A stretch of DNA of 12,345 bases from Blastopirellula sp. (GCA_002733575.1 NVWB01000116.1:1-12345), one strand, 5' to 3'. Positions 101-12,037 are shown, counted from the stretch's first letter. Program-made: numbers and translations. The notes: a model not told the origin generated them from the letters alone.

Positions 101-298
101 AGTTGAAGATATTGAAGGAAGATTCCATCGATTTTGGGTCTTCCTTCGTTTTTAACTCGAAATGATTTGACAGCCACGAGCTAGGGCCTCATCATACCGT
201 GTAGTAGACACTTTGGATTTTGCGCAATAATTGCCCTTTTGCGGCGAATACCATTGTAGAACTACCCTGTACTATGTCTTTTTTTGAGGTCTCGTCCG

Positions 299-895
299 AT
301 GTTAAACACCTTGTTTCTAGTTTGTGCCATAGGCGCAGGTTCTGTCTTTGTCATGCAGTTTGTCATGGCATTGGTTGGATTTGGGGCTGACGACCTAGAC
401 TTTGGCGATGATATCCCCGATGACATTCCTGACGAGATGCCCGATATGGACCAAGGCTCTGTCATAGATCATGGGTCAACCTGGCTGTTCGGTGTGATCT
501 CATTTCGCACGGTGATTGCCGCGTTTACCTTCTTTGGGCTCACTGGATTGGCCGCTGATACGGCTGATTTAGGGACTCCTGTTTCACTGACGATTGCGAT
601 TGTCTTTGGAATTGCGGCCATGTACTCAGTGCATTGGCTAATGCAGATCCTCTATCGCTTAGGGCACGATGGCACCGTCAGAATTGAAAACTCAATTGGG
701 AAGACCGGCACGGTCTATATACCTATTCCTGCTGATAACTCAGGCAAGGGCAAAATCCAAATGCAGCTGCAAAGCCGAATTGTGGAATACGCCGCGATGA
801 CTGCGAATACTGAAAAGCTGGCAACTGGCACTCCGATTCGCATTGTTAAAGTGGTGAGCCCTACCACGCTTGAAGTTGAAAAAATTGTGCTTTGA
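299..895 (+). CDS. NfeD-like membrane protein (flotillin-associated). N-terminal TM helices, an acidic D/P-rich linker, more TM helices and a C-terminal OB-fold beta domain.
   Basis: The ORF in frame from TTG 284 more likely starts at ATG 299, which has GAGG 8 nt upstream. Hydrophobic segments LFLVCAIGAGSVFVMQFVMALVGF and WLFGVISFRTVIAAFTFFGLTGLAA flank the linker DDLDFGDDIPDDIPDEMPDMDQ. The C-terminal G-rich beta region (GTVRIENSIGKTGTVYIPIP...GKGKIQMQ...GTPIRIV) is typical of NfeD/YuaF proteins. It sits immediately upstream of a flotillin gene, as in the yuaF-floT operon. Confidence 0.7.
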   Translation: MLNTLFLVCAIGAGSVFVMQFVMALVGFGADDLDFGDDIPDDIPDEMPDMDQGSVIDHGSTWLFGVISFRTVIAAFTFFGLTGLAADTADLGTPVSLTIAIVFGIAAMYSVHWLMQILYRLGHDGTVRIENSIGKTGTVYIPIPADNSGKGKIQMQLQSRIVEYAAMTANTEKLATGTPIRIVKVVSPTTLEVEKIVL

Positions 896-1067
896 TATAC
901 ACCACTGTTACGACACCTGTTACCTGCATAATCGGAAGCAGCAGCTAGAAGAAGCCGAGAAACCAGAGAGTTCCTCTACTCCTAGCGATTCGCAATGAGC
1001 TACATGTATGTAGAAAAATCTCTGCGAAACCCTCGCTCCCGACTTGCGTATTATTGGAGAAAAAAGA

Positions 1068-2732
1068 ATGAGTATGCCTCCCCTGTTGTTAGGTTCGTTG
1101 ATGGATGGACCTTGGTTTTGGATTGCCGTGACAGTTGTTGCGGGTGTCATGATCCTTTTTGGATTTTTGATTCTATTGGCCAAGCAATACAAACGTTGTC
1201 CTAGCAACCGTTTGCTAGTGATCTACGGTCGAACCGGAAAAGGTCACGCCTCACGAACCATTCATGGTGGTGCGGCATTCATCGTTCCATTGCTTCAAGA
1301 CTATGCCTATCTCAGTTTGGAACCGATTCAGATCGAGATTCCGCTGCGAGGTGCCTTGTCTTCGGAAAATATCCGCGTCAATGTTCCTAGTGTGTTTACC
1401 GTGGCCATTGGTACAAGTTCTGGCGTTATGGATAACGCCGCGATTCGTTTACTAGGGCTCAGCACGGGCGAGATTCGCAAACAAGCGGAAGAGTTGATCT
1501 TTGGCCAATTGCGTCAAGTGATTGCTTCGATGCGTATCGAACAAATCAACCGTGATCGTGACACATTTTTGAATCACGTACAGTCTTCGCTGGAACCAGA
1601 ATTAAGCAAGATTGGTCTGATATTAATCAATGTGAACATCACCGATATCACCGATGAATCTGGCTACATCGACGCCATCGGGCAAAAAGCAGCATCGCTT
1701 GCCATTCAGGTGGCTCGTGGTGATGTGGCCGATAATGAAAAGATGGGTGAAACTCGCGTTGCGGAAGCTCAACGAGATCAGGCCGTTCAAGTGGCAAACG
1801 CCAACAAAGAGCAATTGATTGGTACCAGGGCTGCCGAACGTGATCAGGCCATTAAAGTGGCTGACATGAAAAAAGAGCAAACCATTGGAGAACGCCAAGC
1901 TGAGTTCGAACGTGAAGCTCAAGTGAAAAACGCCGAGCGAGACAAACGTGTGCGGATCGCGGAAGCCGATGCAGCCGCGATTGAAGGTGAAAACGAATCG
2001 CAAGCCAAAGTGGCCGCTTCGCAGGCCGAACTTGCAGTGAAACGTGCGGAAGCTTACGAAGTGGGTGAAACCCGCAAGAAGGAAGCAGAAGCTGCCGTTC
2101 TGGAAGCGCAAAACCGGGCGATGGCCAAAGCGGCGTTAGCCGAAGCCGAACGTGTGGAAGCCGAACAGCGTGCCTTGTTAGAAGCCCCTGCGAAAGCGGA
2201 TAAAGCCAGGGTCGAAGTCGACGCCTCGGCAGAAGCTTCGAAACGACGTATCTTGGCTCAAGCTGAAGCCGATGCCAATTTCGCCAAGTTAGATGCCGAA
2301 GCCCGAGGTCAATATGAAATTCTGGCCAAAAAGGGTGCAGGTCTTCGGGAAATCGTCAATGCTTGTGGTGGCTCGAAAGAAGCGTTCCAATTGTTACTGC
2401 TTGAACATTTAGACACCTTGGCCGAAACTTCCGCCAAAGCGATTTCGAATATCAAATTTGATAAAATCGTGGTCTGGGAAAATGGTAGCGGTAAAGATGG
2501 TCGCTCCAACACTGCCGACTTCCTGTCCGGCATGGCAAAAACTTTGCCTCCGATGATGCAAGTGATGAAGGACATCGGCGGTATCGAACTGCCCGAAGCC
2601 TTAATCAAATTCACCGAAGATGGCCCGGCTGCATTGGTCGATAGCAGTGAGCCTAGTGCATCTTCGGAAGATGATGAAACCATCGTCGCTGCTGAAACTG
2701 GCGACCAAGATGAAGCTCCAGAGTCAGCATAG
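1068..2732 (+). CDS. Flotillin-like SPFH/band-7 family protein (FloT/YqiK-like) with an N-terminal membrane anchor, a long E/A/K/R-rich coiled coil and an acidic C-terminal tail
   Basis: The long ORF in frame from 1044 probably starts at ATG 1068, with GGAGAA upstream. The N-terminal TM helix is WFWIAVTVVAGVMILFGFLILLA. The SPFH core includes KRCPSNRLLVIYGRTGKG...RVNVPSVFTVAIG. About 250 aa of EA-repeat coiled coil (AEAQRDQAVQVANANKEQ, AEADAAAIEGENESQAKV...) follows. A rho-independent terminator lies downstream. Confidence 0.85.
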   Translation: MSMPPLLLGSLMDGPWFWIAVTVVAGVMILFGFLILLAKQYKRCPSNRLLVIYGRTGKGHASRTIHGGAAFIVPLLQDYAYLSLEPIQIEIPLRGALSSENIRVNVPSVFTVAIGTSSGVMDNAAIRLLGLSTGEIRKQAEELIFGQLRQVIASMRIEQINRDRDTFLNHVQSSLEPELSKIGLILINVNITDITDESGYIDAIGQKAASLAIQVARGDVADNEKMGETRVAEAQRDQAVQVANANKEQLIGTRAAERDQAIKVADMKKEQTIGERQAEFEREAQVKNAERDKRVRIAEADAAAIEGENESQAKVAASQAELAVKRAEAYEVGETRKKEAEAAVLEAQNRAMAKAALAEAERVEAEQRALLEAPAKADKARVEVDASAEASKRRILAQAEADANFAKLDAEARGQYEILAKKGAGLREIVNACGGSKEAFQLLLLEHLDTLAETSAKAISNIKFDKIVVWENGSGKDGRSNTADFLSGMAKTLPPMMQVMKDIGGIELPEALIKFTEDGPAALVDSSEPSASSEDDETIVAAETGDQDEAPESA

Positions 2733-2770
2733 TCTGAATTTAGGGCACGATTCTTTAATTTCAAAAACTC

Positions 2771-2806
2771 AAAAGGCGGGTGAATTAGTTCATCCGCCTT
2801 TTTTTG
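2771..2806 (+). terminator. Rho-independent terminator of the nfeD-flotillin operon
   Basis: Stem GGCGGGTGAA/TTCATCCGCC (10 bp, one G-U wobble) with loop TTAG, followed by TTTTTTT. It lies 39 nt after the flotillin stop. Confidence 0.75.
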
Positions 2807-2852
2807 TGCCTGCTGTGCATTTTTAAAATCGATATTCTGATATAAGTTTTCT

Positions 2853-2945
2853 GTTGTCCCGGAGGGACAATAGCATGTAGCCAGGGGATTCATCCCCTGG
2901 AATCAAATTACTCAAAGTTCCAAAAGCCCCAGCGGGGCGATATCG
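2853..2945. repeat. Left arm of a ~95-bp imperfect terminal inverted repeat containing three hairpins (GTCCCggaGGGAC, CCAGGGGAttcaTCCCCTGG, GCCCCagcGGGGC)
   Basis: Reverse-complementing 3488-3582 and aligning it to 2853-2945 gives the same three hairpins in the same order with about 70% identity. An example is gtcccggagggacaatagcatgtagccaggggattcatcccctggaa against gtcccgatagggacgacatcgtgtagctaggggatttatcccctggaag. Confidence 0.6.
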
Positions 2946-3118
2946 AGAAAATTGAGTAGTTTTGCCGTCGGAGAACAAATTTCATCAGAGAATAATCTTT
3001 GATTGGTGATACTTCTCGGTGAACTCCACCACTTTCAACTTTCTACCCGATAATAATGTCGTCATCAAAACCTACATCGAACTTCAAAGCATCATCATAA
3101 ACCCCTTCAAAAGATGTC

Positions 3119-3300
3119 TCACGCAAAGCCGCAAAGGCGCCAAGGAAGGAAAGAAGAAGTTTTTAACACAGAGGCACAGAGAGAGCAGAGGATTGGGTTT
3201 CAGACTTCATCTTGTCAAAAAAAAGATTCTCACGCGAAGCCTCGAAGTCGCGAAGAGGTTTTGCTTCAAACTTTCTTGGCGCCTTTGCGTCTTTGCGTGA
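3119..3300. repeat. Nested 23-bp inverted repeat (3119-3141 and 3278-3300, 22/23 complementary) enclosing an AG-rich core of about 137 nt; also a 14-bp direct repeat tctcacgcaaagcc/tctcacgcgaagcc
   Basis: tcacgcaaagccgcaaaggcgcc at 3119-3141 against ggcgcctttgcgtctttgcgtga at 3278-3300, which is its reverse complement with one mismatch. The direct repeat copies are at 3116-3130 and 3227-3240. Confidence 0.55.
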
Positions 3301-3487
3301 TTTATTTTTCATTTACTTAAGGAGTATTTATGACACACAAGAATCAACGACCGGCCCTAAGTAGAATATGTCATTAGGACAAGAAAACACGGTGCTTATA
3401 CATTTCCAGAGACCGTAGCAAGAAGTGTTTGCGGTGGAGTTCAGCGAGAAGTGTTGATTTGTAGCCTTATCAACGGCTCATCAAGCA

Positions 3488-3582
3488 ATGTCGCCCCTGG
3501 CCGGGGCTTAGACGATTTAGGGCATTCACTTCCAGGGGATAAATCCCCTAGCTACACGATGTCGTCCCTATCGGGACTGAAA
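3488..3582. repeat. Right arm of the ~95-bp imperfect terminal inverted repeat (GCCCCtggccGGGGC, CCAGGGGAtaaaTCCCCTAG, GTCCCtatcGGGAC), mirrored relative to 2853-2945
   Basis: See the left arm. The hairpins appear in reversed order and orientation, so the two arms are inverted copies about 540 bp apart. Together they bound a noncoding element of about 730 bp. Confidence 0.6.
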
Positions 3583-3719
3583 AAATGGCAGAAATAGTAA
3601 CGAGTAAAACCATATCCTTCGTGGATATTCGGCACACGTTATTTAAAAATGCTCTAGCTTCGCCCTAGAGTCCTTTCGAGAAAGGTAGGGTCTGTCTTAT
3701 AATCGAGGGTTCCTGATAC

Positions 3720-4355
3720 GTGCCAACATTGCCACGTGCAACCCTACAATTACCTAATAGAGATCAGTCTGTGCTGGAAATCATCCACTATCCGCATCCT
3801 ACACTGCGATATAAATCAAAACCGATCAAACGGGTCGACGCCAACTTGCGCCAGATGGTCGAAGAAATGTTTGACCTGATGTATGAGCACAAAGGCGTAG
3901 GGCTGGCCGCCAATCAAGTTGATTTGCCGCTTCGACTGTTCGTGGTCAACGAAACGGCCGATCCGGATCAAAGAGACCAAGAGCACGTCTTTATTAATCC
4001 GATCATTAGTCGGCCCAAAGGGAACGAAGAGGCCCAAGAGGGCTGTCTGAGTTTGCCAGAAGTGTATGCCGATGTAAAACGGCCTGCCGAGTTCCATTTC
4101 TCTGCTTACAATCTCAAAGGCGAGAAAATCGAAGGACAATTCGATGGGTTCTTTGGCCGTATCTTACAACACGAAACCGACCACTTAGATGGCATCATGT
4201 TTATCGATAAAGTGATGCCCAATGACTTGGTGGAAATCGAGCATGAGATCGAAGAATTTGAAGTCGATTTCAAAAGCAAGCGAGATGTCAACGCAATTCC
4301 ATCCGATGAAGAAATCGCCCAACGATTGTCCGAAATTGAAGCAACGTATTGTTAG
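3720..4355 (+). CDS. def: Peptide deformylase
   Basis: All three PDF motifs are present: GVGLAANQV (motif 1), EGCLS (motif 2) and QHETDHLDG (HExxH, motif 3). The start is ambiguous among GTG 3720, TTG 3729 and GTG 3771. The last gives an N-terminus MLEIIHYPHPTLR that is typical of PDF, so the true start is probably 3771. There is a C-terminal acidic extension of about 35 aa. Confidence 0.9.
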   Translation: MPTLPRATLQLPNRDQSVLEIIHYPHPTLRYKSKPIKRVDANLRQMVEEMFDLMYEHKGVGLAANQVDLPLRLFVVNETADPDQRDQEHVFINPIISRPKGNEEAQEGCLSLPEVYADVKRPAEFHFSAYNLKGEKIEGQFDGFFGRILQHETDHLDGIMFIDKVMPNDLVEIEHEIEEFEVDFKSKRDVNAIPSDEEIAQRLSEIEATYC

Positions 4356-4418
4356 CCTTGTTTCCTGAGCCACGACAATCAATTTTCCTTCACCGATGTT
4401 TTACCAAAGAGATCCAAT

Positions 4419-5396
4419 ATGCGAATCGTCATGATGGGGACCGGGCCATTTGCGGTTCCTACGTTTGAAAAATTGATTGCCAGTCAGCATGAAGTGTTGT
4501 GTTTGATCACACAACCAGATCGTCCTACGCGCGGCAAGCGGAAGCCGCCAGTGAATCCGATGCGACAAGCGGCAGAGAAAAACGGCATCACGGTTCACTC
4601 TCCGCAAAGCATCAACAACGAAGAAGCATCTCAGTTGTTGACCGCCTGCGAAGCTGACTTATATGTGGTCTGCGATTACGGACAGATTCTATCCAATGAC
4701 ATCTTGGCGTTGGCGAAGTACGGCGGTATCAACCTGCATGGGTCTCTGCTGCCCAAGTATCGCGGTTCGGCCCCAGTACAGTGGGCCATCTACAACGGCG
4801 ACGCCACCACCGGCGTGTCTGTGATTCACATGACACCCAAGCTCGATGCTGGCCCTTGCTTGAAAGTGGTTGAGACACCGATTGATGCAAATGAAAATCA
4901 ACTAGAACTCGAACATCGATTGTCCACACTCGGTGTCGCTGCCGTGTTCGATGCGATTGATCAGCTAGAACAATCCAACGCAGGTGAAGCACTTGGCGAA
5001 GTGCAAGATAAAGCATTGGCCACCAGGGCTCCTCGATTAAAAAAATCAGATGGCGAGATCGATTGGTCCAAATCAGCCAAACAAATCTACGATCAATTTC
5101 GGGCCTTTCAACCATGGCCAGGCTGCTTCACCCACTGGCTGCGTGAAGGCGAAGAACCGCTGCGACTGATCGTCAAACAGGTTCGATATGAGCAAATTGA
5201 GACCGAATTCCCAGACTCTGAGGTCGGTAAAACCGTGGCGGCAGATGATCAAGGAATTCAGATTACTTGCAAAACGGGGGTCATAATCCTCGAAGAAGTA
5301 CAGCCTGCCGGAAAACGGGCCATGAAAGTTGAAGAACTTCTGCGGGGCTATTCGATCTTGCCAGGCATGCCATTTGGACCGCAACCTGTTTCATAA
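4419..5396 (+). CDS. fmt: Methionyl-tRNA formyltransferase
   Basis: The N-terminus MRIVMMGTGPFAVPTFEKL is Fmt-like. The formyltransferase core HGSLLPKYRGSAPVQWAIYNGDATTGVSV is present. The gene lies immediately downstream of def, the classic def-fmt arrangement. Confidence 0.9.
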   Translation: MRIVMMGTGPFAVPTFEKLIASQHEVLCLITQPDRPTRGKRKPPVNPMRQAAEKNGITVHSPQSINNEEASQLLTACEADLYVVCDYGQILSNDILALAKYGGINLHGSLLPKYRGSAPVQWAIYNGDATTGVSVIHMTPKLDAGPCLKVVETPIDANENQLELEHRLSTLGVAAVFDAIDQLEQSNAGEALGEVQDKALATRAPRLKKSDGEIDWSKSAKQIYDQFRAFQPWPGCFTHWLREGEEPLRLIVKQVRYEQIETEFPDSEVGKTVAADDQGIQITCKTGVIILEEVQPAGKRAMKVEELLRGYSILPGMPFGPQPVS

Positions 5397-5552
5397 CAGC
5401 AGGTTGCGACTGATACTGGTCCACTCTTTGGTTCCTCCAGTTCTCAAAAAGCGGCCAAATGCTCATTAATACCTCTCGCCGAAACTCCCCATCATTTACT
5501 ACGATAAGGAGAACTGTATCTGAAGACCAAGGATGGTTTCAAGGAACACGGA

Positions 5553-5785
5553 TCATGGATGTCTGGAACATAATGCTTTTTGCTGCGGCCGTGTATGTGG
5601 CGGTCATTTCCCTCGTGCGAATGATGCGAGCTCGTCAAAAGGAATTGATTAAGCGATTTCGTAAAGAATTTGATCGAGAGCAGCAGGCCATCGCCGAGCG
5701 CATTACCCTGAAAAGACGTAAAGAACGTGAAGAAAAAAGAACCCAAATGTTTGATGATCTGGTGCAAAAGCGAGACGCCGCGTAA
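5553..5785 (+). CDS. Small hypothetical protein (~76 aa) with one TM helix and a highly charged K/R/E-rich C-terminal tail
   Basis: ATG 5553 has AAGGAA 8 nt upstream. The TM segment is IMLFAAAVYVAVISLV, followed by RMMRARQKELIKRFRKEFDREQQ...RRKEREEKR. The ORF is open from 5459, but nothing supports the earlier start. No recognisable family. Confidence 0.4.
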
Positions 5786-5891
5786 CGATCAACTGCTGAA
5801 TCAATCGACCTGATAAGCTCTTGGGATTCGTTTCTGAATCCACAAACACTGTGCCCCCAAACTCCCGCTGCTGTGAAAGTCTAAACTGCTG

Positions 5892-7316
5892 ATGCCGAAA
5901 CAATTGTATATCGAAACGGTTGGATGCCAAATGAACATGCTCGATAGCGAACTTGTCGTCGCAAGTTTGCGAAAGCAGGGCTATCAACTGACCGACTCTA
6001 TTGAAGAAGCCGACGCGTTACTCTTCAATACGTGCAGCGTGCGTGAGCAAGCCGAAAACAAAACCTACAGCCACCTGGGTAAATTACGTCAATTCAAAAT
6101 TGATAACCCCGAAAAAGTCATCGGCGTGATGGGCTGCATGGCCCAAAACCATCAAAAGAAAATCTTTCAGCGTGCCCCGTATGTTGACCTGATTGTTGGC
6201 CCTGGCCAGTTGCATCAGATCCCTGAATTGATCAAAAAAATTGAACAGGGTGAAGGGCGACAGATTGAAGTCTCGCTCGGTCGCCGCGATGGTGGTCGCG
6301 AAGAAATTATTCGCAGCCACGAAAGTTTTGATCCACTACGCGACCCTGAAATGCGACCGACCCCGTTCCAAGCTTTTATTCGCATTCAAATTGGTTGCGA
6401 CAAATTTTGCACCTATTGCATTGTCCCAAGTGTTCGCGGACCAGAACAAGGCCGCAACCCGCACGACATCATTGCCGAAGCCAAACATCTGGCATTGCAC
6501 GACACGGTCGAAATCACACTGATTGGTCAAACCGTCAACAGCTACAAAGCGGTTGATCAAGATGGCAAGCTGTGGAGAATGTCGGACCTGCTAGGCGAGC
6601 TGCAAGAGATCGATGGCATTCAACGTATCAAGTTTGTGACCAACTATCCGAACGACATGACCGATGACTTGCTGTGTGCCGTGCGCGATCTCAGCAAGGT
6701 TTCGCCCTATTTGCATGTGCCGGCCCAAAGTGGATCGGAGCGTATTCTCAAGCGGATGAAACGTGGCTACACAGTGGCCCAATATCGAGACATGATGCAC
6801 CGCATTCGAGAAACGGTTCCCGGTGCCGCAGTCAGCAGTGACTTTATCGTCGGCTTCTGTGGCGAGACCGACGAAGAGTTTCAAATGACTGTCGACTTGG
6901 TGGAAGAATGTCGCTTCAAAAACAGCTTCATCTTTAAGTACAGCGAACGCGAAGGAACCAAAGGGGCCGAGATGTACGATGATGACATCCCCCATCATGT
7001 TAAAAAGGAAAGAAACAATCGGCTGCTGGAAATTCAAAATCAAATTAGCCTCGAAGACAATCAGGACATGATAGGGCACACCGTTGATGTGTTGATTGAG
7101 GGCATCAGCAAAACGGCCATCAGAAAAGGGGAAGACACCGGCCCCAGCGTCCAATTAACTGGAAGAACCCATTGCGACCGCATCGTGGTTTGCGAAGGAA
7201 ACCCCCGCCAAATTGGGCATATTCTACCGATGACCATCTACGAAACATCGCCCCATACGCTGTTTGGTGAAGTGGTGACCGAAGCCTGTGGACCGGAGCT
7301 ATTTGGCTTGGGTTAA
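5892..7316 (+). CDS. miaB: tRNA (i6A37) methylthiotransferase, MiaB-type radical SAM MTTase
   Basis: The N-terminal MTTase cysteine triad is present (TVGCQMN, NTCSVREQAE, VMGCMAQ). The radical-SAM motif is GCDKFCTYC. A C-terminal TRAM-like region follows. The GCQMN and NTCxVRE signature fits MiaB better than RimO or MtaB. Confidence 0.8.
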   Translation: MPKQLYIETVGCQMNMLDSELVVASLRKQGYQLTDSIEEADALLFNTCSVREQAENKTYSHLGKLRQFKIDNPEKVIGVMGCMAQNHQKKIFQRAPYVDLIVGPGQLHQIPELIKKIEQGEGRQIEVSLGRRDGGREEIIRSHESFDPLRDPEMRPTPFQAFIRIQIGCDKFCTYCIVPSVRGPEQGRNPHDIIAEAKHLALHDTVEITLIGQTVNSYKAVDQDGKLWRMSDLLGELQEIDGIQRIKFVTNYPNDMTDDLLCAVRDLSKVSPYLHVPAQSGSERILKRMKRGYTVAQYRDMMHRIRETVPGAAVSSDFIVGFCGETDEEFQMTVDLVEECRFKNSFIFKYSEREGTKGAEMYDDDIPHHVKKERNNRLLEIQNQISLEDNQDMIGHTVDVLIEGISKTAIRKGEDTGPSVQLTGRTHCDRIVVCEGNPRQIGHILPMTIYETSPHTLFGEVVTEACGPELFGLG

Positions 7317-7452
7317 TAGCCAATCCTGCAATTTTGACTGGCCTGATTGGACTCTTTCGCCCCGGCATGCTATTCTCAATACATTGAAAAGACCCTCACC
7401 TTTGTGTGCGAATGCTCGCACCTCACCATGTTATCTATAGGAGATTCTATTT

Positions 7453-8079
7453 ATGCGAACTGTAATTAGCAGTTGCCTGTTGCTCTTGGTTTTGATTTCT
7501 TCCAACGCACTGGCTGCCGAAAAAGGTTGGAAAAAACTGACCGATGGTAAAACCTATGACGGTTGGAAAATCAACGAGAACAAAGAAACTTGGTCGATCC
7601 AAGATGGTGCGTTTGTTGCCAAAGGCGACCGCAGCCACTTGTTCTATGTCGGCGATGATAGACCGTTTGTGAACTTTGAGTTCAAAGCCCAAGTCATGAC
7701 CCGCAAAAACAGCAACGGCGGAATTTACTTCCACACCAAATATCAAGACGCCGGCTGGCCCAAACACGGTTTTGAAGCCCAAGTCAACAACACCCACCAT
7801 GACCGTAAAAAAACGGCCAGTGTTTATGCCGTCAAAGACGTAATGGATGATGCACCTGCCAAAGATGACGTTTGGTTTGAGTACTACATCAAAGTGGTTG
7901 GCAAAACCGTAGTGATCAAAATCGACGGCAAAGTGGCCAACAAATACACCGAACCCGAAGGCACCAAAGCCGGCAAAGATTTCACCCGAGTCTTCAACAA
8001 AGGCACCTTCGCCCTCCAAGGCCACGATCCTGGAAGTGTTGTGTACTTCAAAGACATCGAAGTCAAACGCTTGCCGTAA
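7453..8079 (+). CDS. Secreted DUF1080 (3-keto-disaccharide hydrolase-like, LamG-type beta-sandwich) domain protein
   Basis: AGGAGA RBS. The signal peptide is MRTVISSCLLLLVLISSNALAA. The sequence then reads GWKKLTDGKTYDGWK...WSIQDGAF...GGIYFH...EAQV...ALQGHDPGSVVYFKDIEVK, a typical DUF1080 pattern. A terminator hairpin follows 28 nt after the stop. Confidence 0.85.
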   Translation: MRTVISSCLLLLVLISSNALAAEKGWKKLTDGKTYDGWKINENKETWSIQDGAFVAKGDRSHLFYVGDDRPFVNFEFKAQVMTRKNSNGGIYFHTKYQDAGWPKHGFEAQVNNTHHDRKKTASVYAVKDVMDDAPAKDDVWFEYYIKVVGKTVVIKIDGKVANKYTEPEGTKAGKDFTRVFNKGTFALQGHDPGSVVYFKDIEVKRLP

Positions 8080-8106
8080 GCAAATAGCCAATGGCAACCA
8101 ATTAAT

Positions 8107-8147
8107 ATAAAAGAGCCCGCTCTGAATCAGAGCGGGCTCTTTTTTTG
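8107..8147. terminator. Bidirectional rho-independent terminator, copy 1 of 3
   Basis: ATAAAAGAGCCCGCTCTGA/atc/AGAGCGGGCTCTTTTTTT. A perfect GC-rich stem of about 13 bp is flanked by an A-tract upstream and a T-tract downstream. Confidence 0.85.
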
Positions 8148-8193
8148 TTATCTTGTTTTTAGTAAAGGTCGCTTTATATTTCGTCAGTGTCAC
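8107..8193. repeat. Direct-repeat block 1: the terminator plus about 45 bp ending in GTCAGTGTCAC. Block 2 at 8783-8869 is in register exactly 676 bp away. A shorter copy (terminator plus TATC...GGTCGCTT) sits at 10691-10758.
   Basis: Ungapped alignment of 8107-8193 to 8783-8869 gives about 95% identity over the hairpin and about 74% over the 53 bp that follow. The shared ends are ttttgtcagtgtcac and tttcgtcagtgtcac. The block-1 segment tatcttg...ggtcgcttt resembles tatcatc...ggtcgctta after the third terminator. Confidence 0.7.
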
Positions 8194-8283
8194 TCATCGC
8201 GTGTGGTCAAAATACTCATCTGGAAGCCACGTAGGGTAGATAAATCCATATTCATCCACCTTGGAATCACGATTCAACCAAAA

Positions 8284-8298
8284 TTAACCATTGGTTAA
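8284..8298. promoter_or_regulatory. Perfect 15-bp palindrome TTAACCATTGGTTAA (copy 1), candidate dimeric-protein binding site
   Basis: The sequence is exactly its own reverse complement. It recurs identically at 8331-8345 and in degenerate form at 8470-8482. Confidence 0.5.
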
Positions 8299-8330
8299 AT
8301 TTCCCGAAAAACCCCTCTACTGCGGCGGAC

Positions 8331-8345
8331 TTAACCATTGGTTAA
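8331..8345. promoter_or_regulatory. Perfect 15-bp palindrome TTAACCATTGGTTAA (copy 2)
   Basis: Identical to copy 1, centre-to-centre spacing 47 bp. A T-tract follows. Confidence 0.5.
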
Positions 8346-8469
8346 TTTTTGATGACCGTTTTTATCGGTTACCCCGTTGTTGGTCGAATTTTTGTGTTGT
8401 TGTAACTCCCCGTCTCAAACGACTTATGGCAAGTGAAAATCCTTGCTTTCTTGGATTCAACCAAAACAT

Positions 8470-8482
8470 AACCTTTGGTTAA
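8470..8482. promoter_or_regulatory. Degenerate third copy (AACCTTTGGTTAA) of the TTAACCATTGGTTAA palindrome
   Basis: Matches the palindrome with one central substitution. A GGTTAA half-site repeats 14 nt downstream. Confidence 0.35.
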
Positions 8483-8782
8483 ATATATGACCGCGGTTAA
8501 ATCGCATCTTCACACATTTCAAACCGGTCAAAACACTCAGCTTTCCCCCCGTTGGAAATCAAATCTCGGGTAGCCCAAGTTGCAAGCAACTGGCGGCATG
8601 ATTTGTCATAAATCGGTTCCATAGCTCTGGTCCAATTTACAAAACATCTGTAAGGCACGCCGGATATTCTGTAGGGTACGCTATTGCGTACCAGCCATTA
8701 TAAAACCGCATTATAATCTCACGCCCAGGCCCAATTTCAAACCCCAATTGCACTTCACACTGGCGAAGCCAGTGGCACCCAA

Positions 8783-8822
8783 ATAAAAGAGCCCGCTCTG
8801 ATACAGAGCGGGCTCTTTTTTT
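8783..8822. terminator. Bidirectional rho-independent terminator, copy 2 of 3
   Basis: ATAAAAGAGCCCGCTCTG/ata/CAGAGCGGGCTCTTTTTTT. The stem is the same as copy 1 and only the loop differs. Confidence 0.8.
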
Positions 8823-8869
8823 GTAATCTGATTTGAAGTATCGATTGTGTTAAATTTTGTCAGTGTCAC
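8783..8869. repeat. Direct-repeat block 2 (terminator plus ~45 bp ending GTCAGTGTCAC). The motif recurs inverted at 8929-8942 (GTGAACACTGACAA).
   Basis: See block 1. The inverted third copy of TGTCAGTGT(C/T)CAC, together with 8859-8870, flanks a roughly 58-bp AT-rich stretch immediately upstream of the DUF262 gene. Confidence 0.65.
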
Positions 8870-9024
8870 CAGTCAACTTAAATAATTTGCTATTATTCTA
8901 TCTACACCTCTGTTATTATTCTTGCTCCGTGAACACTGACAAGGTAGTATTCAATATCCCCTCCTAGACTTAATGGAATTGCTAGATAGATATTTCATAA
9001 ATAATCCATAACATAAAGAATCAC

Positions 9025-10113
9025 ATGGCAACTAGTTTAAAATCAATCCGTGACGACGAAGAAGAATTACTGTACGAGGCAGATGAGTCGGAACTGCCTC
9101 CTTCCGATATCGTTGCTTTTAATGAGCAGAGGTCATGTGCTGATTTATTGCGAATGTACCAGTCAGAACAACTCATCATTCAGCCCGATTTTCAACGTGA
9201 TATTGTTTGGCCTAATCCTGCACAAACGCGGTTTATAGATTCGTTAGTGAAGGAATTGCCGATCCCAAGTATGTGCATCAGTTTTGATTACAACACAACA
9301 GAAAGACTTGTAATTGATGGGCTACAACGTATGTCAACAATCATCAAATTCCTCTCTGATGACACTTGGAAATTATCTACAGTTTCTGATGTTGACAAAC
9401 GAATATCAGGCAGGACTAATGATTACATCAAGAAGAATCACAGTTCAATTTATGATCGAATTCAAAACCTTACTATTCCTGTAACAGTACTTCGATGTGA
9501 CTATAAAAAGGAATCTCACATGAGGTATTTGTTTACAATATTTCACCGGCTCAATACTGGTGGAAGCAAGTTATCAAATCAGGAGATTCGAAATTGCATC
9601 TACAGTGGAAGTCTAAATGATTTGTTAAAAGAGTGTGTTGAAAATAAAGATTATCGTCACCTACTCAATCTCTCAGCCAAAGGAACATATCGATTTTCTC
9701 ACGAAGAGCTAGTGTTAAGGTTCTTTGCATTTACGGATAAGTTTTCGGATTATGATGGAAAGTTGTCCTCATACTTAAACGACTATATGAATCATCATCG
9801 CCATGCCGATTCGAAATTCCTCAGGAAGAAGAAAAAACAATTTTTAGAGATGATCAAAATATGCTATGAAAAACTGACTGAAGGTGCAGCTCTTCCTAAG
9901 GGAAGTAAAGCAACTACTGAAGCTATCATGGTAGGGATAGGTAGAAATTTAAGTACATTAAGGTCTACTAGGTCGGCTACAGTTCAGAAACGCATGAAAG
10001 AATTGCTTAATACTGATGAGTTTCACCCAGACAACCTAAAAAATGCTTTGACGTCAAAAGATAAAATGATATCTAGGCTGAGGAGTGCTGTAAAGGTTTT
10101 AGGTGGCAAATGA
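9025..10113 (+). CDS. DUF262 domain protein (ParB/Srx-fold, GmrSD N-terminal-like nuclease/NTPase domain), 362 aa
   Basis: DUF262 signature blocks in the expected order: IQPDFQRDIVW (FQRxxVW), QTRFIDSLVKELPIP (LIDSI...PIP), VIDGLQRMSTI (DGQQR box) and IFHRLNTGGSKLSNQEIRN (FxRLN.GG..L). The N-terminus is acidic. The gene is strongly AT-rich, with 30-40% GC in sampled 60-bp stretches against about 52% in a host-gene sample. Its stop overlaps the downstream start as ATGA. Confidence 0.85.
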   Translation: MATSLKSIRDDEEELLYEADESELPPSDIVAFNEQRSCADLLRMYQSEQLIIQPDFQRDIVWPNPAQTRFIDSLVKELPIPSMCISFDYNTTERLVIDGLQRMSTIIKFLSDDTWKLSTVSDVDKRISGRTNDYIKKNHSSIYDRIQNLTIPVTVLRCDYKKESHMRYLFTIFHRLNTGGSKLSNQEIRNCIYSGSLNDLLKECVENKDYRHLLNLSAKGTYRFSHEELVLRFFAFTDKFSDYDGKLSSYLNDYMNHHRHADSKFLRKKKKQFLEMIKICYEKLTEGAALPKGSKATTEAIMVGIGRNLSTLRSTRSATVQKRMKELLNTDEFHPDNLKNALTSKDKMISRLRSAVKVLGGK

Positions 10114-10607
10114 TAAGCAAACAAGAAATCGAACGCGATCTAATTAAATTAAAAAGGCTATATGAAAAAGCACCAGATACTCATACTAGTGTGTTCTATT
10201 CGAAGCTTGCAATTCTTGAACTGAGTAGTTGGATCGAATTAAGTTTTGATAAAATAGTAAAACGGTCCATTAATAACAAACTGACATTATGTAAGTATCA
10301 AGCCCTAGTTGAATCGAGTATTAAGAGGAACAACAGTTTTTCGTACAAAAACCATTTTATTCCGATGTTACAAAAAATATCAGGGTTGGTGGCTTGTGAA
10401 GACATCGAGACGAAAATCAAATCCAGCGGTAAGTTTGAACAGCTCACAAACGAATTAACGATCTTAGTAGAAGAACGAAATAAAGCCGCACATGTTGGAG
10501 TTCGACATACAACATACGATGCACCATCTGTTACGATACAAAGATTCAAAGATCTGTATCCGACGATCAAGGATATGTATACATGGTCAGTAAGGTACTG
10601 TTCCTAA
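10110..10607 (+). CDS. Small all-alpha protein with an Rx4H motif (EERNKAAH), candidate HEPN-like RNase partner of the DUF262 protein (MAE_28990/MAE_18760-like)
   Basis: The ATG overlaps the upstream stop by 4 bp (ATGA), implying translational coupling. The sequence is rich in helix-forming residues (L/E/K). The only catalytic-looking feature is the HEPN-type R-x4-H at residues ~123-128. AT-rich like its partner. The family assignment rests on the motif plus the known genomic association of DUF262 genes with MAE_28990/MAE_18760 HEPN genes and was not verified by search. Confidence 0.5.
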   Translation: MISKQEIERDLIKLKRLYEKAPDTHTSVFYSKLAILELSSWIELSFDKIVKRSINNKLTLCKYQALVESSIKRNNSFSYKNHFIPMLQKISGLVACEDIETKIKSSGKFEQLTNELTILVEERNKAAHVGVRHTTYDAPSVTIQRFKDLYPTIKDMYTWSVRYCS

Positions 10608-10690
10608 CTCCAGATTGGAGAGGCAAGATTTTGCAACACGGCTCATATGTCTCTACCGAAAACAATTCAACTATGATTCGTCGATGTGAC

Positions 10691-10733
10691 AAAATAAAAA
10701 GAGCCCACTCTGTAACAGAGCGGGCTCTTTTTT
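10691..10733. terminator. Bidirectional rho-independent terminator, copy 3 of 3, serving the HEPN-like gene (+) and the Gfo/Idh/MocA gene (-)
   Basis: AAAATAAAAAGAGCCCACTCTG/taa/CAGAGCGGGCTCTTTTTT. The stem has one mismatch (A opposite C) relative to copies 1 and 2. It lies 27 nt beyond the stop of the minus-strand oxidoreductase gene. Confidence 0.8.
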
Positions 10734-10759
10734 ATCATCTAATTTTCAACTTCGGTCGC

Positions 10760-11902
10760 TTACGCGATGTCGACCCATTTGCGTTCGGCGGCGCTTTCTA
10801 GTACGGCGTCGCAAACTTTGGCGGTTTCTAGTGCGGTTTTGAAACTTGGTTCGCATACGGTGCCATCTTCTAGACTCTTCAAGAAGTCGGCCACTTGATG
10901 GACGAAGCTGTGTTCATACCCGATGCTTAATCCTGGAACCCACCAGTGATCCATGTACGGCATGTCTCCATCGGAAACATGTACTTTGTGCCAACCACGG
11001 ACGAGCGAGTCGTCGCGGTGATCGAAGTACTCTAAGTGGTTCAAGTCGTGCAAGTCCCAGCGGATCGAACCATGTTCGCCGTTGATTTCTAGCGTGTACA
11101 ACGCCTTGTGTCCACGAGCATAACGCGTCGACTCAAACAAGCCCAACGATCCATTGGCAAAATGGCAATGGAATACACAAGCGTCATCGATGGTGACCTT
11201 CTCCATCTTGCCGGTCAATTGATGCATTCGCTCTTTGATGAAGGTCTCGGTCATGGCTGATACGTCAACGATGCCGCCGTTAAGCCACATGGCCGTGTCG
11301 ATACAATGGGCCAACAGGTCACCTGTTACGCCAGAGCCTGCGGCTTCCGCGTCTAACCGCCAGAGTGCTTCGCCACCTTGAGGCAAGTCAGCGTTGATCG
11401 TCCAGTCTTGCAGGAAGTTCGACCGGTAATGAAAGATGCGACCTAGGCGGCCTTCGTCAATCAATTTTTTGGCCAACGAGACGGCCGGAATTCGGCGGTA
11501 GTTGTACCACACGGTATTCGCAACGCCCGCTTCTTCAACCGCGGTAACCATTTCTGCGCCTTCGGCAGTGGTGCGTGCGATTGGCTTTTCGCACAACACC
11601 ATCTTGCCTGCTTTGGCAGCCGCGATGGCAATTTCGTTATGCGTGTTGTTCGGCGTGCAGATATCAATGGCGTCGATATCGTCGCGTGCGACCAGTGCTT
11701 TCCAATCGGTCTCGTAAGACTCGTAGCCCCACTTGGCAGCAAAGTCTTTCGTCTTCTCTTCGTTACGACCACAAACGGCCTTCAGCACTGGGGTGTATTC
11801 CAGTTCTGGAAAGAAGTCAGGGGCTCGCTTGTAACCGTTGGAATGCGTACGGCCCATGAAGCCGTAGCCAACCAGTCCAATGTTCAGCGGTTTTTTTGCC
11901 AT
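10760..11902 (-). CDS. Gfo/Idh/MocA family NAD(P)-dependent oxidoreductase
   Basis: The N-terminal Rossmann fold is [19 protein letters not shown], and the EKP motif appears in MVLCEKPIA. At 380 aa the length is typical. GGAG lies 11-14 nt upstream of the ATG on the minus strand. Confidence 0.9.
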
Positions 11903-11934
11903 GGTAATCTATCTCCAATGTTGAGTTTTTATTT

Positions 11935-12037
11935 GTAGGTCAGGCTGTGCCTGACGATGTGTAAATGACTGATGGTGTTCGATGCTAAAACTAATTCGAC
12001 GTGAATTAAGTTCGACGTCAGGCACAGCCTGACCTAC
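11935..12037. repeat. Perfect 22-bp inverted repeat (GTAGGTCAGGCTGTGCCTGACG at 11935-11956 and CGTCAGGCACAGCCTGACCTAC at 12016-12037) enclosing a 59-bp AT-rich loop; REP-like element or terminator between two minus-strand genes
   Basis: Exact reverse-complement match. The loop contains the internal direct repeat TTCGACGT twice. The same 17-mer also occurs at 81-97. The element starts 5 nt beyond the stop of the upstream minus-strand ORF (12043). Confidence 0.6.

Follow-up and report, generated by a model that had tools for sequence, protein, structure and literature searches.

A predicted PD-T4-2 defence cassette lies among homologous terminator-like repeats at a synteny break in a Blastopirellula contig

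The stretch of DNA analysed here (the window) is the entire 12,345-bp contig of a metagenome-assembled genome (MAG) of Blastopirellula sp. (GCA_002733575.1, NVWB01000116.1:1-12345; proteins PHS04552–PHS04561); further sequences of that sample (BioSample SAMN07571235), namely an ENA scaffold of 25 kb and two Logan contigs, matched it at 100%. Within the window, a DUF1080/3-keto-disaccharide hydrolase gene (7453–8079, plus strand; Pfam PF06439, E = 6e-35) is followed by a hairpin, an apparently non-coding module of ~550–560 bp (module M, 8201–8753, minus strand), a second hairpin, a two-gene cassette identified as the defence system PD-T4-2, and a third hairpin that leads to the stop codon of a convergent Gfo/Idh/MocA oxidoreductase gene (10760–11902, minus strand; Pfam), which has an orthologue in B. 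marina at 82%. A first-pass annotation, made from the sequence alone, had described 8107–10758 as an AT-rich island of ~2.6 kb, inserted into a terminator shared by the two flanking genes and bounded and subdivided by three copies of that terminator.

The hairpins were recovered by a repeat search as one 37-nt family, at 8109–8145, 8785–8821 (95%) and about 10697–10733 (92%), with all copies in direct orientation. Their stems comprise 16–17 pairs, 8–9 of which are G-C, and are followed by T-runs of 4–7 on both strands; each may also be described as a pair of perfect 11-bp inverted arms enclosing 7 bp, the latter varying among copies. Folding energy was −24 to −31 kcal/mol on either strand (z = −7 to −9), and the four top-scoring terminator-like sites of the window all corresponded to these hairpins. 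Hairpin 1 starts 29 nt past the DUF1080 stop codon, while hairpin 3 ends 26–27 nt from the oxidoreductase stop codon (10760–10762) and is placed 88 nt past that of the HEPN gene, the second gene of the cassette. In every sequence feature considered, the hairpins have the anatomy of a strong bidirectional intrinsic terminator, and hairpin 3 is the predicted terminator for both the PD-T4-2 operon (plus strand) and the oxidoreductase (minus strand).

A 12-nt stem sequence, GAGCCCGCTCTG, occurred six times in the window when up to two mismatches were permitted, always inside the hairpins, against an expectation of 0.58; none of 200 shuffled sequences reached six. Copies 1 and 2 form an in-register pair of 87 nt (8107–8193 and 8783–8869; 83% identity) at a spacing of 676 bp, and blastn extended their homology to 108 nt (8086–8193 against 8767–8869; 79.6%, E = 8e-21), taking in ~20 nt on the upstream side of the hairpin and ~50 nt on its downstream side. 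The motif GTCAGTGTCAC was found exactly twice, at 8183 and 8859. Because homology runs into the non-functional tails, the evidence supports three homologous copies rather than convergent look-alikes, and because it extends beyond the hairpin on both sides, the repeat is a duplicated intergenic unit and not a mere convergent motif. To this extent the first-pass annotation was confirmed, having recorded the three near-identical hairpins with their A- and T-tracts, the register of copies 1 and 2, and the motif that these share downstream. Its claim that copies 1 and 3 have a common tail held in part; the tail of copy 3 does run into the oxidoreductase stop codon, but the resemblance is weak, with 21 of 31 positions identical, including GGTCGCTT (permutation test, p = 0.08 when taken alone).

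Three units could be delimited around the hairpins. Unit 1 (8080–8200) is composed of flank A (8080–8108), the hairpin (8109–8145), tail B1 (8146–8176), which ends in GGTCGCTT, and a Q motif (8178–8200) that consists of ATTTCGTCAGTGTCAC plus about 7 nt. Unit 2 (8754–8874) begins with a different flank, P (8754–8784), holding a small CACTGGC..GCCAGTG hairpin of its own, and continues through the hairpin (8785–8821) and tail B2 to a Q motif (8854–8870) with the sequence ATTTTGTCAGTGTCACC. Unit 3 (about 10696–10762) contains the hairpin (about 10696–10733), which has one A–C mismatch on the plus strand, and tail B3 (10734–10762), the last three letters of which, TTA, are the stop codon of the oxidoreductase on the minus strand.

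The cassette between units 2 and 3 opens with an AT-rich 5' region (8875–9024, plus strand; GC 0.32), for which promoter-like sites were identified on both strands, with −35 hexamers at 8857–8862 (plus) and 8942–8937 (minus). Gene A (9025–10113, plus strand) encodes a DUF262/GmrSD_N (ParB-like) protein of 362 aa; residues 5–359 matched positions 7–361 of the 363 in the PADLOC profile PD-T4-2_A (PDLC04027, E = 2e-159), Pfam returned PF03235 (E = 7e-24), and a DGLQR motif is present in the translation. Gene B (10110–10607, plus strand), the start of which overlaps gene A by 4 bp, encodes a HEPN protein of 165 aa that matched PD-T4-2_B (PDLC04028, E = 8e-50) over its full length and Pfam HEPN_RiboL-PSP with 28.7 bits against a cut-off of 28.4 (E = 1.5e-6), and that carries the Rx4H motif RNKAAH. 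The 3' flank of the cassette (10608–10695, plus strand) has a GC content of 0.40, and a decayed A-like flank for unit 3 may be represented by the final ~18 nt, a weak match in which 10 of 18 positions are identical to flank A. The profile matches identify the DUF262 and HEPN pair as a PD-T4-2 defence operon with a predicted anti-phage function; protection, directed against T4, has been demonstrated for the system of E. coli ECOR65 only (Vassallo et al. 2022, PMC9519451). Just upstream of gene A, the core of the unit 2 Q motif, TTGTCAGTGTCAC (8857–8869), has an inverted near-copy, GTGAACACTGACAA (8929–8942), 60 nt downstream. Together they make a 10-nt perfect inverted repeat that brackets the AT-rich region, and each supplies a TTGTCA −35 hexamer; the promoter-like sites face inward on opposite strands.

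Base composition set the cassette apart from its surroundings. Its G-C content at third codon positions (GC3) was 0.35, compared with 0.48–0.62 for host genes, and its trinucleotide distance from host DNA was 0.405, compared with 0.109 ± 0.023 for host chunks of equal length. The segment 8870–10690 is clearly AT-rich (GC 0.37), but the remainder of the claimed island is not; the GC content of 8194–8753 was 0.43, akin to other non-coding DNA of the host (0.39–0.43), and module M and unit 2 are not compositionally foreign. The cassette is absent from the closest relative, has a GC3 of 0.35 and belongs to a widely transferred defence system, and it is therefore foreign, horizontally acquired DNA. 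The foreign DNA amounts to ~1.8 kb, from 8875 to about 10680. Foreignness, which had been proposed for the palindrome-bearing module as well as for the DUF262/HEPN genes, was thus upheld for the latter and not for the former.

Homologues of the cassette with 55–71% identity are spread across many phyla and contexts. The E. coli pair is 48% (gene A, full length) and 39% (gene B) identical, and, according to PADLOC-style annotation, resides in a P4-like satellite hotspot, next to an integrase at ssrA. In E. coli 2009C-3133 (L025, 3553868–3555503), DUF262 and HEPN genes occupy the cargo position of a satellite, between psu/delta-like genes and the integrase, and DNA 65% identical to gene A is carried by 17 of 5,426 complete E. 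coli genomes. The closest homologue (71% for gene A) was observed on an ENA metagenome contig (L026, 8001–9610), where it is situated between IS66-family transposase genes and close to a large serine recombinase; this setting is possibly one type of vehicle for the cassette. No hairpin repeats flanking the cassette, and no non-coding homology to the window, were found in L025–L028, which comprise E. coli and three contigs, two of them planctomycete-like and one IS66-rich. Nor were close relatives of gene A found on phages in IMG/VR. In the window itself, no tRNA or tmRNA target was found, and integrase, transposase and resolvase domains were lacking among the open reading frames (ORFs) of the window (Pfam) and the genes on ~17 kb of the source scaffold, in agreement with the earlier statement that the window holds no recombinase of this sort.

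A close relative without the cassette was located by exact-sequence look-up of the NfeD-like protein of the window, which has a cluster-mate at ≥90% in a Pirellulales MAG (GCA_054183925.1). Three assemblies of it (L029–L031) are 86% identical to the window in nucleotide sequence. The relative is colinear with window positions 103–2812 and 3659–8146, that is, through hairpin 1 (85.6% nucleotide identity, L029), with DUF1080 as the final gene of the colinear block. After the stop codon of its DUF1080 gene comes the same hairpin (L029 16938–16978), followed by the tail CCTCTAATTTTGACATCGGTCGCTTA, an unrelated spacer of ~115 nt, and block P (L029 17122–17148), which is 96% identical (26/27) to window 8754–8780. 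Only 16 nt, GAGAAGGGGCTCTTGG, separate P from block Q (L029 17165–17194), which includes ATTTCGTCAGTGTCAC and is 90% identical (27/30) to window 8845–8874; the 16 nt look like a remnant of the 3' arm of a hairpin, within a decayed unit 2. Block Q is followed by the stop codon of a convergent DUF1579 gene, and homology between window and relative ends at 8874. Module M, the cassette and the oxidoreductase were all absent from the DUF1080 site of the relative. Its orthologues of the oxidoreductase (MGY8767262.1) and DUF4432 (≥90%) are on a 136-kb contig (135,691 bp), and its DUF1080 gene is on a 53-kb contig.

This comparison altered the history proposed for the locus. The hairpin is the predicted native terminator of DUF1080 in this lineage, and at least two units already stood beside DUF1080, with no cassette yet present, when the window's lineage parted from that of the closest available relative. 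Copies 1 and 2 had been likened to attL and attR; since unit 1, together with a decayed unit 2 between matching P and Q flanks, occurs in the relative that has no cassette, they are not the product of cassette integration. It had also been proposed that DUF1080 and the oxidoreductase originally converged on a single terminator. A cassette-free site does exist in the relative, but the oxidoreductase is not beside DUF1080 there, and because the two are on different contigs they were not ancestrally adjacent. Their juxtaposition is restricted to the window's lineage.

More distant genomes provided no empty site. In B. marina and strain J2-11, DUF1080 and the oxidoreductase each have other neighbours, with terminators at the equivalent positions but of different sequence; these two, a Pirellulaceae MAG and three DUF1080 contigs were rejected as empty-site candidates, having other neighbours and other terminators and being too distant. 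Beside the same oxidoreductase in J2-11 there is another small insertion, a 23S_rRNA_IVP four-helix-bundle gene (L017 9494–9880) between AP_endonuc_2 and the oxidoreductase, which B. marina DSM 3645 (L015) does not have. Further copies of the stem, with up to two mismatches, were sought in ~40 kb of two genomes (12.3 kb plus 7.8 kb of source scaffold, and 20.6 kb of the relative). None was present in the rest of the window or in 16.9 kb of the source scaffold, and the 20.6 kb of the relative contained the orthologous copy alone. When public collections were scanned for the exact pattern, unrelated single matches numbered 6 in GTDB genomes, 4 in JGI metagenomes and 0 in IMG/VR, the source genome apparently not being included. 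Flotillin has a different hairpin as its terminator, and this one is conserved in the relative. In the ~40 kb sampled, therefore, the repeat does not appear to be a generic terminator of the genome.

When the units of the window were compared with those of the relative, different parts of one unit found their counterparts in different places. Flank A of copy 1 is orthologous to the 3' flank of the relative's DUF1080 gene (unit 1; 25/35), while Q of copy 1 is identical to Q of the relative's unit 2 (16/16). The copy 1 tail was 61% identical to the tail of the relative's unit 1 over 31 aligned columns (permutation test, p = 0.008). For the copy 3 tail, the best match was that same tail of the relative's DUF1080 unit (22/25; permutation test, p < 0.0002), and the hairpin and tail of unit 3 together were 83% identical to L029 16941–17004 over 66 nt (E = 6e-11). 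Unit 1 appears to combine parts of two units of the relative, flank A, hairpin and tail B (A-H-B) from its unit 1 and Q from its unit 2, and such a mosaic points to recombination among the copies. The match of the copy 3 tail would fit an ancestral DUF1080 terminator that is now parted from its tail.

Module M contains three TTAACCATTGGTTAA palindromes, at 8284, 8331 and 8468 (five when counted on both strands, against 0.04 expected), two of which lie within the longer repeat GATTCAACCAAAA..TAACC.TTGGTTAAAT. The predicted RNA fold was much better for the minus strand, at z = −4.46, compared with z = −1.56 for the plus strand. On the minus strand there is a promoter-like sequence, TTGAAA-16-GATTAT (TG-extended), at 8740–8713, with hairpin 1 downstream of it, and it is possible that a structured RNA of ~600 nt is produced from this site to hairpin 1. 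Comparison with Pfam and with phage, plasmid and viral-contig sequences gave no matches for M, no homology was found in the relative, and its 53-aa ORF had no homologues among 1.8 billion proteins. Matches in Rfam were all sub-threshold and driven by the terminator. Two identities were rejected for M: that of a decayed DUF1579 or other gene, after tblastn with the relative's neighbouring proteins gave nothing and the small ORFs showed no Pfam match, and that of a known RNA or mobile DNA, given the sub-threshold Rfam scores and the empty phage, plasmid and viral searches.

The explanation that we consider moderately probable is that a native bidirectional terminator unit was duplicated locally and recombined at a rearrangement junction, with PD-T4-2 becoming fixed between units 2 and 3. 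The three hairpins would be paralogous copies of an intergenic unit of ~110 nt native to this Pirellulaceae lineage, built from a gene-proximal flank, a GC-rich palindromic stem of 16–17 bp with its A-tract and T-tract, a tail of ~30 nt and the ATTTCGTCAGTGTCAC motif. A repeat-rich, convergent intergenic region would have become a junction in the window's lineage, where M is now found between units 1 and 2, PD-T4-2 between units 2 and 3, and unit 3 runs straight into the stop codon of an oxidoreductase block; in the relative, this block and DUF1080 are not linked. Crossovers between near-perfect palindromic repeats, whether homologous or through short homology, would have shuffled, duplicated and mosaicised the units, and incoming DNA would have been fixed between them, with illegitimate joins at the cassette edges; attL and attR sites made by an integrase would not be required. 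Each module (DUF1080, M, PD-T4-2 and the oxidoreductase) would be transcriptionally insulated by a predicted terminator, which probably made the insertions tolerable. We infer recombination among the units as the cause of the arrangement, terminator activity of the hairpins, and insulation as the selective reason, and the whole resembles the outcome of ordinary recombination where genes meet at a repeat-rich junction, rather than a new kind of mobile element.

Several observations weigh against this explanation. The order of events is not uniquely reconstructible; tandem duplication, unequal crossover, inversion and circle integration were each considered as a single history, and each fits part of the mosaic while none is singled out. 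The combination of the copy 3 tail with flank A of copy 1 is the pattern expected when a single A-H-B unit is split by an insertion within the hairpin. At 25–31 nt, the tails are too short for 81% as against 61% identity to be decisive in statistical terms. Unit 3 may be a local copy or a member of a dispersed family, its origin being compatible with either, and terminator activity has been deduced from sequence only.

Among the alternatives, an assembly artefact, by which unrelated loci or co-occurring strains were joined into a chimeric contig through the common hairpin, is highly improbable. The window is indeed a metagenome-assembled contig, it unites two blocks that the relative has on different contigs, and the Logan contigs break at 8317 and 8754, the latter being the start of a block shared with the relative. 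However, no two hairpin copies have more than 21 nt of exact sequence in common, which is below the assembly k-mers, and the NCBI contig agrees base for base over 9.1 kb with the ENA scaffold, a possibly non-independent assembly of the same BioSample. Logan contig L004, from an independent and conservative assembly (k = 31), passes uninterrupted through block P, unit 2, Q, the cassette, unit 3 and the oxidoreductase, and so links sequences that belong to the DUF1080 side by the relative's synteny to the oxidoreductase; contig L002 joins DUF1080, hairpin 1 and the start of M. These k = 31 contigs cross all three hairpins without branching. As L002 ends at 8317, inside M, and L004 starts exactly at 8754, the first base of P common to the relative, a third confirmation is missing only for the interior of M (8318–8753), and the breaks suggest a co-occurring strain variant that differs within M.

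It is rather unlikely, although less so, that the hairpins belong to a dispersed palindromic family of the REP/REPIN or MITE kind, copies of which fall, or preferentially insert, after stop codons, and that recombination then fused the loci. The ends of the units abut the stop codons of DUF1080, of DUF1579 in the relative and of the oxidoreductase, synteny with the relative breaks at the units, and the genome has other short palindromic repeats (three copies of GGCACAGCCTGACCTAC at two loci, and the foldback at 2813–3658 described below); yet the stem has no extra copy in the rest of the window, the 16.9 kb of scaffold or the 20.6 kb of the relative, the Logan contigs are unbranched through all hairpins, and the public scans returned only unrelated singletons, which is a weak objection given the apparent omission of the source genome. 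Integration at the terminator with duplication, the model of the first-pass annotation, would have hairpin-bearing DNA enter by a single crossover inside a chromosomal hairpin, either through Campbell-type homologous recombination or through a tyrosine recombinase that the host supplies in trans, as with IMEX elements and the pdif modules of Acinetobacter, and would leave direct repeats of the hairpin around the insert, with the third copy derived from another event. Segments M and the cassette are each bounded by direct copies of the unit, and the one intact DUF1080 unit of the relative finds its best match on one side in flank A of copy 1 and on the other in tail B of copy 3, like a split attB. 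A local recombinase gene would not be needed for action in trans, pdif modules being known to move cargo between recombination sites without a recombinase gene of their own (PMC6449649), and the reading of the hairpin as two 11-bp arms with 7 variable base pairs at the centre would suit such a site. Against this, units 1 and 2 both occur in the cassette-free relative, so that the cassette did not make that duplication, and the insert would have to hold P, unit 2 and Q, all native to the DUF1080 locus. The tails of the flanking copies are merely 61–68% identical, although the cassette is compositionally unameliorated, such repeats are missing around the cassette at every other locus examined, terminator function alone would account for the A/T tracts and for the location behind stop codons, and there is no resemblance to the dif or attC consensus. 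We regard integration of this type as distinctly unlikely. Doubts are stronger still over the idea that the ~110-nt unit is a recombination site at which a trans-acting chromosomal recombinase, Xer-like or other, serially captured and stacked promoter-bearing modules, M and then PD-T4-2, between convergent genes in Pirellulales. It is very improbable, too, that the locus represents what such capture would imply by analogy, a terminator-based cassette platform without an integrase, comparable to pdif modules or attC-less integrons, and we would give just as little credence to the decayed second unit of the relative as the scar of a lost module.

Comparison with known systems supports the assignment of the individual parts. 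The cassette has the two-gene order described for PD-T4-2, DUF262/GmrSD_N and then a small HEPN gene with Rx4H (Vassallo et al. 2022, PMC9519451), but its host is a planctomycete MAG, it has no satellite, prophage or integrase context, host terminator repeats surround it, and its defence function here is a predicted one. The array also lacks an integrase, the defining gene of integrative islands. Phage morons and the defence cassettes of integration hotspots (Hochhauser et al. 2023, PMC10121019) are likewise self-contained, low-GC units with a promoter-like region, genes and a terminator, set between resident genes; the present cassette differs in being outside any recognisable prophage, satellite, integrative and conjugative element or transposon. 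Most defence systems of E. coli ride recognisable mobile elements (PMC10121019). The hairpins share with bidirectional intrinsic terminators the GC-rich stem, the A-tract and T-tract and the distance of 26–30 nt from stop codons, and the relatives have terminators at the same positions; what departs from the usual terminator is the presence of three homologous copies within 2.6 kb and homology that extends beyond the hairpin. As with REP, REPIN, BIME and MITE (miniature inverted-repeat transposable element) sequences, a short intergenic palindrome lies by stop codons and at synteny breakpoints, and is a plausible terminator, but there are no dispersed copies in the ~40 kb of two genomes, and no RAYT, transposase, or terminal inverted repeats with target-site duplication were found in the sequence available.

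Modules parted by one palindromic site, with no recombinase gene, are also a feature of CALIN attC arrays (clusters of attC sites lacking an integrase) and of the pdif/dif modules of Acinetobacter (PMC6449649). In contrast to both, the copies here are all direct, T-tracts are present, one module is geneless, and units 1 and 2 are free of cargo in the relative. An attC site has R''/L''/L'/R' boxes arranged as an imperfect palindrome, in which there are extrahelical bases and a GTTRRRY core, and a Xer dif-like site has 28 bp, with distinct XerC and XerD arms and a 6-bp centre, pdif sites alternating in orientation. Pairing in the stems of the window is complete or interrupted by a single mismatch, and bulges, extrahelical bases and a GTTRRRY core are all lacking; the 3' sides of the hairpins (GTTATCT, GTAATCT and ATCATCT) fit no such core, judged by anatomy with no attC covariance model run. 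Their arms are identical inverted copies with a 3-nt loop, unlike pdif or IMEX sites, and bear no likeness to the dif consensus. Readings of the repeat as attC, dif or a tRNA-att site were ruled out on anatomy.

Elsewhere in the window, Pfam identified NfeD-like and flotillin genes as well as def, fmt and a MiaB-like gene, while the right-hand syntenic block consists of the oxidoreductase, its first gene, followed by AP_endonuc_2 and DUF4432. With respect to the 86%-identical relative, 2813–3658 is an insertion of 846 bp, placed directly 3' of the conserved flotillin terminator (2771–2808). It takes the form of a degenerate foldback of ~700 bp with nested inverted repeats (2863–2902/3530–3569, 3011–3030/3433–3452 and 3110–3148/3271–3309); its outer arm (2855–2900, minus strand) matched the Acido-Lenti-1 RNA (RF01687) with 37.2 bits against the Rfam gathering score of 37, and an ORF inside it (3019–3300) had no Pfam match. 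The short dispersed repeat GGCACAGCCTGACCTAC occurs at 81–100, 11932–11956 and 12016–12037, that is, in three copies at two loci. Two of these form a perfect 22-nt inverted pair around 59 nt in the intergenic region between the oxidoreductase and AP_endonuc_2, and the third, at a distance of 11.8 kb, marks the left end of the contig; GGCACAGCCTGACCTAC could be a REP-like family of the Blastopirellula genome.

The locus places a known defence system in a new host and a new setting, beside a local repeat structure that is ordinary though neat. Were the unit site-specifically recombinogenic, it would constitute a new platform for cassette capture, which the present evidence does not favour. A single close relative sufficed to show that the repeats are older than the cargo, and repeats that flank an island therefore need not be att sites. 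The cassette itself, lying between duplicated host terminators, is an example of naked defence DNA, with no integrase, prophage or transposon, in a planctomycete chromosome at a synteny break.

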